DNA of 64,000 bases from Arcobacteraceae bacterium (GCA_963662945.1 OY759974.1:1472001-1536000), one strand, 5' to 3'; numbered from the stretch's first letter, positions 17,798 to 21,631 are shown. Numbers and translations are program-made. The notes: generated by a model from the sequence alone, not told the origin.

Positions 17798-18757
17798 ATG
17801 TATGCTTCGTTTAAGTCTATAGGTGCTTATATGCCTAGTGAGATTCGTACAAATCAATGGTTTATTGATAGAATGGATACTAGTGATGAATGGATTACAA
17901 AAAGAACAGGTATTAAAGAACGAAGAATTGCATCTGATGATGAAGAAACGAGTGATTTAGGTGCAAAAGCAGCACAAATTGCAATTGACAGAGCAGGCAT
18001 ATCTAATAATGATATAGATTTGATAATATGTGCAACAATTAGTCCTGATTATATGTGTATGCCTTCAACTGCATGTTTAATAGCAGAGAAGTTGGGAAGA
18101 AGAGATGTTATGGCACTTGATATAAGTGCTGCATGTACTGGATTTATATATGCATTAAGTGTTGCAAAAGCTTTTATTGAATCAGGTATGAAAAAAAATG
18201 TGTTAATAATTGGTGCCGAAAAACTAAGTAATATTGTTGACTATACAGATAGAACTACTTGTATGCTTTTTGGTGATGGGGCAGGTGCCGCTGTTATAAG
18301 TTCTACAGAAGATAAAAATGAAGCAATTATAGATATTCAATGTAGTGCTGATGGAAGTCAGAAAGACTTACTTTTAACTCCAAGTGTTCAGAGTAGCGAA
18401 GCTTCTTTTATGCAGATGAAAGGAAATGAAACTTTTAAAATAGCAGTAAGAACACTTACTTCTGATGTGCAAAAGATTATGGAAAAAAATAATTATAAAA
18501 ATGAAGATATAGATCTTTTTATACCGCATCAAGCAAATTATAGAATAATAAAAGCTGTAGGGGATGCTCTAAACTTTGAAGATAATCAAAAAGTATTAAC
18601 TGTTGATAAATATGGTAATACATCTTCTGCATCAATTCCAATGGCAATAAATGAATGTTTTGAAGATGGACGTTTAACAAAAGGGAAAACAATTTTACTT
18701 GATGCTTTTGGTGGCGGATTAACTTGGGGTTCTGCAATTATTAAATTTAATGGTTAA
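17798..18757 (+). CDS. fabH: 3-oxoacyl-ACP synthase III
   Basis: [35 protein letters not shown]. Confidence 0.97.
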
Positions 18758-18759
18758 GC

Positions 18760-18765
18760 TATAAT
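18760..18765 (+). promoter_or_regulatory. sigma70 -10 box for the riboswitch leader transcript
   Basis: GCTATAAT right after the fabH stop, ~25 nt before the aptamer. Confidence 0.55.
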
Positions 18766-18789
18766 TAAATATAGTCTTGATACAATCAA

Positions 18790-18866
18790 CTAAATAGCCA
18801 AACTTACTGTGAAGTAAGGACGGAAAGCTACGGATCTTGATTTTAAGATGGCCGAGTTGCAACTTA
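18790..18866 (+). ncRNA. Cyclic di-GMP-I (GEMM) riboswitch aptamer
   Basis: AG-CC-AAA-CTTACT-GTGA-AGTAAG-GAC-GG-AAA-GCTACGG-ATCTTGA-TT-TTAAGAT-GGCCGAGTTGC matches GEMM architecture: GNRA-capped P2, GAC..AAAG junction, compensatory CC/GG pair, P3 hairpin, ligand residues G20/A47/C92 equivalents at 18797/18824/18860. Confidence 0.88.
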
Positions 18867-18921
18867 CAATACAACTCTCAATTTTTAAATCAATATTTAT
18901 TTTAAATTTATAGGACTAACA

Positions 18922-19170
18922 ATGATTAAGAATCAGAAAAATGGTAGAATAAATTTTAAAATGGTATTGATATTAACATTAATCCTAGCTGGTTTTATTT
19001 ACTATTGGTATGTAACTAAAGATTCTTTAGATGAAACATATAAAATAAAATCAGCAGGTGGTGATTTTGGATATAAGCAGACTTATATCAATAGAACAGG
19101 GAAAGATGTTGAAGAAAAAAAAATTAATCTATCTGATGATTATTGGACTGGCGGTAAGTTTGGTTTTTAG
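18922..19170 (+). CDS. Small single-TM protein, riboswitch-controlled (paralogue 1)
   Basis: AGGA RBS, N-term TM, C-term TYINRTG...KINLSDDYWTGGKFGF. Confidence 0.8.
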   Translation: MIKNQKNGRINFKMVLILTLILAGFIYYWYVTKDSLDETYKIKSAGGDFGYKQTYINRTGKDVEEKKINLSDDYWTGGKFGF

Positions 19171-19190
19171 TTTATAATGAGGAGAATATT

Positions 19191-19403
19191 ATGAATAAGA
19201 AAACGACATCAATTATTGCAATAATTGCAGCATTTAGTTTTATTGTGATAACAAATTTTGATACTTTAACAAAAAAAAGTGATGAGAAGTATGTAATTCA
19301 AAAATGGCAATCTACATATATTAATTCAACAGGTCAAAAAGCAAAAGATAATAAAATAGAGCTTTCAAATAACTATTGGGAAGGTGGAAAGTTTAGTTTT
19401 TAA
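19191..19403 (+). CDS. Small single-TM/signal-anchor protein (paralogue 2)
   Basis: GAGGAG RBS, N-term hydrophobic helix, C-term TYINSTG...KIELSNNYWEGGKFSF. Confidence 0.8.
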   Translation: MNKKTTSIIAIIAAFSFIVITNFDTLTKKSDEKYVIQKWQSTYINSTGQKAKDNKIELSNNYWEGGKFSF

Positions 19404-19422
19404 TTATAATTAAAACTAAACT
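19390..19422. terminator. Near-perfect 33-bp palindrome over the overlapping stops of paralogue 2 and clpA
   Basis: AGTTTAGTTTTT-AATTATAATT-AAAACTAAACT (one bulged T). Confidence 0.45.
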
Positions 19423-21631
19423 CTTCTCCTTTATAGTCTATTGTAACATTCCCACCATCTTTTAAAGCTCCAAAGAGAATTTCATCTGTTAGTGGTGTTT
19501 TGATATATTCTGTAATAACTCTTTGAAGTGGTCTCGCTCCCATAAGTTTATCATATCCTTTGTGTGCTAATTCTTTTTTCGCATTGGTTGTTAACTTAAT
19601 AGTTATATTTTTATCAGCTAAATTAGCTTCTAAATCTTTAATAAACTTAGTTACAATTTTTAATAATATTGGTTGTGTAAGTTGTTCAAATTTTACAACA
19701 GTATCAAGTCTATTTCTAAACTCTGGTGCAAAGAATTTTTTTACAGCTTTATCTTCATTAAGATTATCATCTTTTGCAAATCCCATAATACTAGCTTGAG
19801 TTGCACCAAGGTTTGATGTCATAATTAATATAACATTTTGAAAACTAGCTACAGTACCATTATTATCTGTAAGGGTTGCATTATCCATAACTTGTAGAAG
19901 TAAAGACATAAGATCAGGATGTGCTTTTTCAATTTCATCTAGAAGTAATACAGTGTGAGGATGTTTTTTAATAGATTCTGTTAATAATCCCCCTTTCTCA
20001 TAACCAATATATCCAGCAGGGGCACCAATAAGACGACTTACTGTATGTGCTTCTCCATATTCAGACATATCAAATCTTTCAAAATGAATACCCATAACGT
20101 GAGCTAATTCTTTAGCAACTTCGGTTTTTCCAACTCCTGTACTTCCTGTAAATAAGAAACTACCTACTGGCTTATTGTCTATACCCATACCAGATCGATT
20201 TATTTTAATTGATTTTACAATTGTTTTAATTGCTTCGTCTTGACCAAATACTCTTTTTTGAAGATTTAGTTCTAGATTTTTTAACAAACTTAAATCTGAT
20301 TTAGTTGCAGTTTTTGGTGGAATTTGGGCAATATTTGCAATTGTATTTTCTACATCTTTTTCTGTAATTTTAACAATTTTCCCTTTTTTAGAAAGCTTCA
20401 CTGTTGCTGCAACTTCATCTATTACATCAATTGCACTATCTGGTAAAAATCTATCGTTAATAAATTTTTTACTTAATTCAACGGCTAATTTTAAACTCTC
20501 CCCAGTATATTGTACATTGTGAAACTCTTCATATTTTGCTTTTAAGCCTTCTAGAATTAATACACAATCATCAAGAGAAGGCTCTTTTACTTCAACTTTT
20601 GCAAATCGTCTACTAAAAGCTTTATCTTTTCCAAAGTCATTTCGATATTCTTCATAAGTTGTAGCACCAATAACTCTGAGTTTTCCTGAACTAAGCATAG
20701 GTTTTAAGATATTTGATGCATCCATTGCACTATTTCCTACACTTCCTGCACCCACTACTGTATGGATTTCATCTATGAAAAGAATAGCATTTTTCTTTCT
20801 ACTTACCTCTTGCAAAACAGCTTTGAGTTTCTTCTCAAAATCACCTCTGTATTTAGTTCCAGCAATCATCGAACCCATATCTAAAGAATATATTTTTGCA
20901 TCACGTAGAAATTCAGGTACTTTTTCATTTACAATTTCTAATGCTAATCCTTCTGCAATGGCAGTTTTCCCAACACCAGTTTCCCCTAAAAGAATTGGAT
21001 TGTTTTTCTTTCTTCTTGCTAATATTTCAATAACTCTTTTTATCTCTTTATCACGTCCAATAACAGGATCAATTTGTCCCTCTTTAGCAAGGGACACAAG
21101 TTCAACACTATTTTGTTGCAAAGGTGTTTCTTGAGTTTTCTTTTTGTAATCTTTTACTTTACTAAATTCAAGTGGTGTATCATCATCTTCTTGTTCTCTA
21201 GATTCTCCATGGCTTATCTCTTCAAGAATATCAATTCTTTCTAAACCATATTCTCTTAAAAGAAAAGTACAATATGCTTTTTCATCTTTTAGGATATAGA
21301 CGAACATATCTTCAACTGTTGATTCTCCTTTTCCTGAAAGTTGAGAATGTGAAACCATTTGTTCTATTGTAGTAGTTAATGTAACTGTTTCTATTGGATC
21401 TTCATTTTTATATTCTTCAGGATATTGTGGAGTGTTTTCTAGAATATAATTTTTTAGTTTTATTTCAACATCTTCAACATCTATGTTTAATTGATTTAAA
21501 ATACCAAAAATAGACTGTTCTTTTAAAAGATAGACAAAAATATGTTCAATTGTTATATATTCATGTCTATTTGCTCTTGCATAGTTTACTGCTTCAGAAA
21601 ATACTCTTTGTAGATTTTTACTTATTAACAT
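19400..21631 (-). CDS. clpA: ATP-dependent Clp protease ATP-binding subunit ClpA
   Basis: Two AAA modules (GETGVGKT, GSTGVGKT), RFDMSEY, no ClpB/C middle coiled coil, clpS upstream. Confidence 0.96.
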   Translation of the reverse strand: MLISKNLQRVFSEAVNYARANRHEYITIEHIFVYLLKEQSIFGILNQLNIDVEDVEIKLKNYILENTPQYPEEYKNEDPIETVTLTTTIEQMVSHSQLSGKGESTVEDMFVYILKDEKAYCTFLLREYGLERIDILEEISHGESREQEDDDTPLEFSKVKDYKKKTQETPLQQNSVELVSLAKEGQIDPVIGRDKEIKRVIEILARRKKNNPILLGETGVGKTAIAEGLALEIVNEKVPEFLRDAKIYSLDMGSMIAGTKYRGDFEKKLKAVLQEVSRKKNAILFIDEIHTVVGAGSVGNSAMDASNILKPMLSSGKLRVIGATTYEEYRNDFGKDKAFSRRFAKVEVKEPSLDDCVLILEGLKAKYEEFHNVQYTGESLKLAVELSKKFINDRFLPDSAIDVIDEVAATVKLSKKGKIVKITEKDVENTIANIAQIPPKTATKSDLSLLKNLELNLQKRVFGQDEAIKTIVKSIKINRSGMGIDNKPVGSFLFTGSTGVGKTEVAKELAHVMGIHFERFDMSEYGEAHTVSRLIGAPAGYIGYEKGGLLTESIKKHPHTVLLLDEIEKAHPDLMSLLLQVMDNATLTDNNGTVASFQNVILIMTSNLGATQASIMGFAKDDNLNEDKAVKKFFAPEFRNRLDTVVKFEQLTQPILLKIVTKFIKDLEANLADKNITIKLTTNAKKELAHKGYDKLMGARPLQRVITEYIKTPLTDEILFGALKDGGNVTIDYKGEEFSFNYN

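Follow-up and report, generated by a model that had tools for sequence, protein, structure and literature searches.

The known systems nearest to the locus reported here are the Vc2 and Vc1 riboswitches of Vibrio cholerae (RF01051), whose targets we take to be gbpA and tfoY; a helix joining the 5' and 3' ends of the aptamer, P1, is present in the Vc2 structure. More widely, c-di-GMP riboswitch regulons in species such as Clostridioides difficile take in flagella, pili and surface proteins. Vc1 is reported to be c-di-GMP-responsive (PMC4744006). The locus that we analysed lies within a 64,000-nucleotide stretch of DNA from an Arcobacteraceae bacterium (GCA_963662945.1, OY759974.1:1472001-1536000), which we call the window. 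Its RNA belongs to the same covariance-model family as Vc2 and Vc1, has the same G/A/C contacts, and likewise forms the 5' leader of a gene whose product is extracytoplasmic, in our case by prediction. It differs from them in a shorter P3 from which an inner segment of RF01051 is missing, in an undetectable P1, and in its apparent target, which is an orphan microprotein family and not gbpA or tfoY. With the riboswitch regulons for surface parts it would share control of the envelope or cell surface, to the extent that the envelope role predicted here is correct. Sister riboswitches in the same genus, with flagellin-like, Flp-pilin and TolC-like targets, have the same type of aptamer as the window, whereas the proteins compared here span 66-89 aa and carry no pilin, flagellin or adhesin signature. 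On the evidence below, we consider it likely that a canonical class I c-di-GMP riboswitch controls, as an ON switch, a self-contained unit of two duplicated, exported microproteins. The riboswitch class is already known, and the new part is the orphan family under its control. The features of the locus are as follows.

18760..18765, + strand: TATAAT, candidate -10 box, 3 nt past the fabH stop; the start would be near 18772
18781..18786, + strand: TACAAT, alternative -10 box; the start would be near 18793, within the 5' junction of the aptamer
18787..18865, + strand: c-di-GMP-I (GEMM-I) aptamer, from covariance models, pair list and covariation in 30 aptamers
18798-99/18822-23 and 18803-08/18813-18, + strand: P2, with a GUGA loop of the GNRA type, from model pairs mapped onto the window
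18826-36/18847-58, + strand: P3, from model pairs mapped onto the window
18797, 18824 and 18860, + strand: contact nucleotides G18797 (G20-equivalent), A18824 (A47-equivalent) and C18860 (C92-equivalent), from alignments to both models
18854..18886, + strand: terminator-like hairpin, putative expression platform, GAGUUG (18854-59) against CAACUC (18872-77) around a 12-nt loop
18922..19170, + strand: ORF1, 82 aa, with a K/R-rich N-terminus, a hydrophobic helix at about residues 12-37 and a predicted exported tail ending LSDDYWTGGKFGF
19191..19403, + strand: ORF2, 70 aa, a paralogue of ORF1 with a shorter N-terminus, ending LSNNYWEGGKFSF
19376..19437, no strand assigned: long hairpin, candidate bidirectional terminator, spanning the overlapping stop codons of the convergent ORF2 and clpA

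Scanning of the whole window with cmscan gave a single Rfam match above gathering threshold, to RF03167 (c-di-GMP-I-GGC) at 18788-18865 on the + strand (62.5 bits against a cut-off of 59, E 2.3e-12). RF01051 (c-di-GMP-I) matches at 18787-18864 on the same strand (62 bits against a cut-off of 35, E 9e-12), so that the check by covariance model proposed in the initial annotation of this DNA came out positive with both models. When the two were run separately over the genome (2,497,315 bases in a single contig), each returned one match, at this same locus, and the genome therefore has one c-di-GMP-I place. All the P2 and P3 pairs assigned by the models are standard pairs in the window. G18797 lies directly 5' of P2, A18824 is the first nucleotide after P2 and C18860 the second after P3, and the alignments to both models thereby confirm the selective G/A/C combination that had been read from the sequence alone. 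When 30 related aptamers were aligned, RNAalifold recovered P2 and P3 with compensatory changes in 12 of the 21 consensus pairs, and the contact columns hold G in 30/30, A in 30/30 and C in 29/30 (the locus L006 has U). The covariance models, the G/A/C contacts and the placement on the same strand 57 nt before ORF1 together support the reading of this RNA as the leader of a class I c-di-GMP riboswitch, a known class, and it is predicted to bind c-di-GMP.

The aptamer had initially been described as complete at 18790-18866. P2, P3 and the junctions bear this description out, while the closing helix does not and the inner part of P3 is deleted; the models place the element at 18787-18865. P1 is not detectable in the window aptamer or in the 30 related ones: of the 3 P1 pairs in RF03167 just 2 are standard in the window, RNAalifold predicted no closing helix across the 30 aptamers, and the best helix that the 13 nt ahead of the 5' junction can form with the 14 nt following the C92-equivalent has on average 4.43 pairs, compared with 4.49 in shuffled sequences. 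The RF01051 model is itself without P1. That the window has no such helix, which a classical switch would use, and no inner P3 segment counts against the switching mechanism proposed below. The loss of the inner P3 stem-loop of RF01051, which concerns the part of distal P3 where a tetraloop-receptor segment would be sought, belongs to the window's lineage, as seen in the near-identical aptamer of the locus L032.

Upstream, the TATAAT box that had been pointed out earlier is indeed present, at 18760-65; it is not listed by a promoter scan, which returned 6 promoter-like sites where 7.2 would be expected and hence no excess, and AT-rich hexamers are common in this region of the window. It is furthermore rivalled by TACAAT at 18781-86, which starts 15 nt before the A preceding G18797. 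Among the 12 related leaders listed, a TAnnnT hexamer 15-18 nt before the G20-equivalent also occurs in L006, L014, L015, L019 and L022; L012, L020 and L023 have none, and at these three loci fabH ends about 20 nt or less from the junction. A transcription start inside the 5' junction, near 18793, would fit the missing P1.

In the leader, the 5' arm of the terminator-like hairpin, GAGUUG, is shared with the aptamer, where it makes up the 3' strand of basal P3 together with the junction G. The hairpin (-5.5 kcal/mol) is followed by UCAA and then by UUUUU at 18882-86. Among the nearest orthologous leaders, L015, L019, L025 and L026 preserve both arms and the U-run while the sequence and length of the loop vary, and L027 has four U. 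We propose that in the ligand-free RNA the GAGUUG of basal P3 would pair with CAACUC and form a weak terminator before the U-run, and that bound c-di-GMP would lock the junction and basal P3, allowing transcription to continue into ORF1 and ORF2. Since the ligand would stabilise the junction and basal P3 and so block the hairpin, an anti-terminating ON switch is the simplest reading of this arrangement, and we lean slightly towards it.

The main competing view keeps the same riboswitch and genes and has c-di-GMP lowering expression, or acting through ribosome access; we give it a real though clearly smaller chance. In its favour, the proposed terminator is weak, with its 12-nt loop and the 4 nt between stem and U5, and a terminator scanner called no sites in 18600-19700, although its rules bar loops of more than 8 nt. 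More distant leaders of the family (L004, L005 and L007) lack a U-run and cover the ribosome-binding site with a hairpin, and in the leader of L014 a stretch of 12 nt is complementary to P2 and contains the anti-Shine-Dalgarno sequence ACCUC. Moreover, a similar GAGUUG/CAACUC element also precedes flagellin-like genes in relatives, which are usually repressed by c-di-GMP, and the architecture therefore leaves the sign of the regulation unfixed. Against this view, the only conserved alternative pairing in the window's own leader takes away the basal P3 strand and has a U-run behind it, and the leader shows no evident complement to the ribosome-binding site of ORF1 (AGGA, 18912-15).

The two short ORFs and their ribosome-binding sites reported initially (82 aa at 18922-19170 and 70 aa at 19191-19403) are present as described, with AGGA at 18912-15 before ORF1 and GAGGAG at 19179-84 before ORF2, each 6 nt before the ATG. 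The proposed paralogy of the two products likewise holds, with 38% identity over 69 residues (E 8e-13). Relative to the nearest orthologue, changes at the first, second and third codon positions number 5/6/18 in ORF1 and 9/5/23 in ORF2, a third-position excess of the kind seen in translated genes under purifying selection. An alignment of 28 sequences defines a C-terminal family motif, LSDxYWxGGKF: W75 and G78 never vary, and at least 90% of the members share L70, S71 and F80.

The earlier statement that neither protein could be assigned to a family is upheld by every resource searched. The best Pfam matches for the ORFs reach 14-15 bits against cut-offs of 27-31, nothing in NCBIfam comes near the cut-offs for either, and PADLOC gave no matches. 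A profile search of the PDB had a best E of 0.1, which concerned the N-terminal hydrophobic helix only. When all 28 family members were scanned, no curated family matched more than two of them. A word-index search with ORF1 recovered 17 proteins, of which the three that bear names are each a 'hypothetical protein', one of them from a Campylobacterota MAG. Among 1.84 billion representative proteins, a profile built from 18 members had 15 matches at E <= 0.001, of which 12 are family-like, at 48-89 aa; the remaining three are long proteins (432-3894 aa, each matching in 5-9 short stretches) that we took as spurious, the one inspected, P0031, being a repeat protein. The aptamer is ordinary and would be expected from Rfam-based annotation; its apparent target, an orphan family represented by 12 short clusters in 1.84 billion, is out of the ordinary. 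The named genome records that carry it are all labelled Arcobacteraceae, Arcobacter, Campylobacterales or Campylobacterota; the family is unannotated and, in the searches made here, found only in Arcobacteraceae.

AlphaFold2 models, built from a 28-row alignment for ORF1 and a 39-row alignment for ORF2 (mean pLDDT 63.7 and 66.3), confidently predict an N-terminal helix, which comprises residues 12-37 of ORF1 and 3-31 of ORF2 and has a pLDDT above 90 in both, reaching about 92. The tail of about 45 aa is not confidently folded in either model (pLDDT about 47-56). ORF1 carries a net charge of +4 ahead of the helix and of 0 over the 15 residues that follow, in keeping with an N-in, C-out topology; in ORF2 it is +2 on either side of the helix, and the charge rule is uninformative. 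Based on the predicted N-terminal helix and this charge distribution, we suggest a membrane or envelope location in which a signal-anchor or signal peptide would place the tail outside the cytoplasm. There the microproteins may respond directly to high c-di-GMP as its output, binding a partner via LSDxYWxGGKF. An envelope-facing effector of high c-di-GMP that docks through its C-terminal motif is our best guess at their function.

A variant of this proposal, in which the products are cleaved and secreted peptides, such as signals or bacteriocin-like molecules, and not membrane-anchored proteins, strikes us as unlikely, although several features are compatible with it: in distant subfamilies the hydrophobic stretch ends in TLSA/IDIK or SIQA/NDK, like a classic cleavable signal peptide, the hydrophobic stretch of ORF2 is short, and the tails have no predicted fold of their own. 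The ORF1-type helix, however, has 19-26 residues and no small-x-small cleavage site after it, and no gene for export, immunity or maturation recurs as a neighbour, the neighbours being fabH and clpA in the window and a histidine kinase and a lipoprotein at L004. Pilin identity was also considered. Flp/Tad pilins have a leader ending in G, followed by an xxxxEY motif and a hydrophobic helix, and this G/xxxxEY processing motif is absent from the 28-sequence alignment, by which we rejected it. Flp-like genes are found at the riboswitch loci L013, L029 and L030, where they carry an EKG/AMD leader and, as judged by reading translations, encode Flp-type pilins accompanied by a prepilin-peptidase-like gene.

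We then used the contextual information available from related genomes. RF01051 occurs in 29 of 61 of these, including the window's own, and within the genus in 22 of 27, not counting the own genome. A family member is the first gene behind the aptamer at 16 of the 29 riboswitch loci from other genomes, a count that covers these 29 loci and leaves out 22 further riboswitch matches. By reading translations, the other 13 loci have flagellin-like (L009, L021), Flp-pilin (L013, L029, L030), TolC-like (L010) and assorted or unclear ORFs in this place. From the protein side, 24 of 184 genomes of Arcobacteraceae have a match at E <= 0.001. Three of them (G071, G092 and G183) were dropped, as their matches cover only model positions 3-55, the hydrophobic part, in frames of 143-144 aa, and the aptamer is absent at the loci. 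The remaining 21 carriers comprise the own genome, 18 of its 27 genus mates and two members of another genus, G138 and G139.

The aptamer lies directly upstream of the family gene in 19 of these 21 carrier genomes, a positive answer to the question, raised with the initial annotation, of whether homologues of the two ORFs also lie downstream of GEMM elements. The exceptions are G027, in which the gene begins 14 nt past the fabH stop, and G139. As the carriers are related, these counts do not represent independent events; the linkage nevertheless extends over four or more sequence subfamilies and holds in several genomic contexts. It should also be noted that, at 11 of the 12 named loci, the leaders are identical to those of L007, L012, L014, L019, L020 and L022-L027, and that L036 appears to be the same as L056 of G023, with the same score of 58.2 bits. 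With these limits, the linkage of the microprotein family to the aptamer is near-obligate. The own genome has just two copies, ORF1 and ORF2, and the two-gene form is found only there and in G006, G009 and G013, pointing to a recent tandem duplication. A conserved functional neighbour was not found: plsX-fabH and clpA-clpS flank the unit in the window, and L004 has the histidine kinase and lipoprotein genes. At L063, reading of the ORFs shows an aldo-keto-reductase-like gene and a gene for a large membrane protein as neighbours.

Because the family stands almost always behind a c-di-GMP switch, it is probably a direct output of c-di-GMP signalling. In a six-frame search the own genome showed 38 GGDEF and 20 EAL matches above cut-off, from which we conclude that c-di-GMP, the expected ligand, is made in this organism. 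The same kind of search gave no PilZ match even at E <= 10 and no PilZNR match; MshEN has one sub-threshold match of 17.5 bits, and no c-di-GMP-II riboswitch was found in this genome. Among the PilZ, PilZNR, MshEN and riboswitch classes searched, the riboswitch is accordingly the only dedicated c-di-GMP receptor recognised, and the two-gene unit is one of few identifiable c-di-GMP read-outs. Searches of the accessible literature gave no account of these genes or of c-di-GMP riboswitch targets in Arcobacter. Being compact and simple to delete, the unit is a concrete starting point for finding out the role of c-di-GMP in Arcobacteraceae.

A bolder extension would make the LSDxYWxGGKF microproteins a main, dedicated c-di-GMP effector arm in this PilZ-less group of Arcobacteraceae, in which dozens of GGDEF/EAL enzymes stand beside a single riboswitch. 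A rise in c-di-GMP would then turn the riboswitch on and yield one or two periplasm-facing microproteins, whose motif would dock on the flagellar stator or basal body, on a pilus or adhesin system, or on a cell-wall enzyme, and the docking would execute the switch from the motile to the attached state. We regard this as speculative and rather improbable; were it true, these proteins would represent a new class of riboswitch-coupled microprotein effectors.

G20, A47 and C92 (Vc2 numbering) are ligand contacts, and an A at the G20-equivalent is the mark of the GEMM-Ib riboswitches for 3',3'-cGAMP. We take the label 'GGC' to stand for G20/G47/C92, consistent with the consensus lines of both models: J2/3 reads 'GA' in RF03167 and 'AA' in RF01051, and the window has 'AA'. 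That the aptamer might be a specificity variant, of the c-di-GMP-I-GGC or the cGAMP-type GEMM-Ib kind, with a ligand other than c-di-GMP, is suggested by clan competition, which picks RF03167 as the best model for the window and for 8 of 12 related loci. We consider this very improbable. The window exceeds the RF01051 cut-off by 27 bits and that of RF03167 by just 3.5 (62.5 against 59), and it has an A at the J2/3 position that appears to define the variant; A18824 fits RF01051, unlike the G of the RF03167 consensus, and the window and all 30 relatives have A in place of the RF03167-type G at the first J2/3 position, by which the GGC variant was ruled out. The GEMM-Ib type was ruled out by G18797, a G and not the cGAMP-type A, with G in 30/30 relatives. 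On this reading of the label, the set in the window is the canonical G/A/C and the 'GGC' given by clan competition is misleading; that Rfam names these aptamers 'GGC variant' in spite of their canonical A is a point of some relevance to annotation.

NCBIfam models identify plsX-fabH upstream of the unit and the convergent clpA-clpS downstream, which bears out the fabH and convergent clpA setting given at the outset. Across the junction of ORF2 and clpA, the hairpin at 19376-19437 has a folding energy of -18 kcal/mol and a z-score of -3.4, and 1 of 200 shuffled sequences folds as well; it is plausibly a bidirectional terminator that closes the ORF1-ORF2 unit. The overlap of the ORF2 and clpA stop codons means that read-through would be antisense to clpA, and it lends some colour to the idea that the ORFs are incidental and the leader is a riboswitch-terminated small RNA or a c-di-GMP-gated antisense RNA into clpA, but this is scarcely tenable given the coding-type substitutions in both ORFs, the C-terminal motif that is invariant across 28 sequences, the family's position behind the riboswitch also at loci without clpA, and the strong hairpin at the gene ends.

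Transcription of the duplicated microprotein genes together with their riboswitch leader has a possible counterpart in RNA libraries. Three metatranscriptome runs, each from a separate study, contain contigs of 402, 374 and 364 nt that span 18803-19173, 18807-19148 and 18818-19178 at about 88-90% identity to the window; these contigs are assembled, come from relatives and may include DNA (among the runs, X7 is probably DNA), and the parts of the window that they leave uncovered are uninformative. One of them runs on into sequence resembling the ribosome-binding site and start of ORF2. Taken together, the contigs hint weakly that a single RNA carries the aptamer, ORF1 and the beginning of ORF2.

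Across the whole 2.5-Mb genome that contains the window (G000) we observed 38 GGDEF and 20 EAL matches, a single class I c-di-GMP riboswitch and only a sub-threshold match to MshEN; searches of the same complete genome recovered no class II c-di-GMP riboswitch and no PilZ or PilZNR domain. Under Rfam clan competition, the aptamer at 18788-18865 of the window, along with those of the related loci L034, L035 and L038-L043, is labelled RF03167 ('c-di-GMP-I-GGC'), with scores exceeding the cut-off of 59 by just 0.3-9 bits. At the position where the RF03167 consensus has G, the window and 30 of 30 aligned aptamers retain the canonical A, this alignment covering six of the eight labelled loci by way of duplicate loci from related genomes. 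We posit, from the sequences, that the 'GGC' name of these aptamers may be a mislabelling introduced by automated annotation.

We examined the closing helix and the 5' end of the RNA, using the following segments of the window's aptamer and their equivalents in the same 30 aligned aptamers:

18777-18797, 5' segment examined for P1
18860-18883, 3' segment examined for P1

Pairing in this P1 helix was not above chance in the 30 aptamers, with 4.43 pairs as against 4.49 in shuffles. Since several leaders display a -10-like hexamer 15-18 nt upstream of the G20-equivalent residue, their sequence suggests that the RNA may start within the 5' junction of the aptamer. Three metatranscriptome runs on aquifer or sediment samples yielded short contigs of 364-402 nt that span the aptamer through ORF1 (18803-19178 of the window); these represent a relative about 88-90% identical to the window.

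The leaders of some other loci differ from that of the window. In the leader of L014, which is identical to that of L037, ACCUCACAGUAA is complementary, without mismatch over 12 nt, to aptamer P2 (5' strand and loop), and it also contains a complement to the downstream GAGGU ribosome-binding site, which suggests a distinct, possibly translational, design. In the distant subfamily represented by L004, L005 and L007, the leaders are devoid of a U-run and the family gene has its ribosome-binding site covered by a CUCC-tetraloop-GGAG hairpin. At the other end of the window's module we identified a candidate bidirectional terminator:

19376-19437, long hairpin (-18 kcal/mol, z -3.4) spanning the point where the convergent genes ORF2 and clpA end in overlapping stop codons

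In the genus mate G027 (L055, 1480-1740), the family gene begins 14 nt past the fabH stop, with no aptamer upstream of it in this locus, and has apparently been taken into the plsX-fabH operon.

Elsewhere in the genus, with downstream genes named from a reading of their translations, sister riboswitches precede a flagellin-like gene (L009, L021), a TolC-like gene (L010), or Flp-type pilin genes that have a prepilin-peptidase-like gene behind them (L013, L029, L030). The microprotein family is absent from the related genomes G016, G018 and G022, in each of which the sole riboswitch match from the RF01051 search lies upstream of a Flp-type pilin gene, likewise read from translations.
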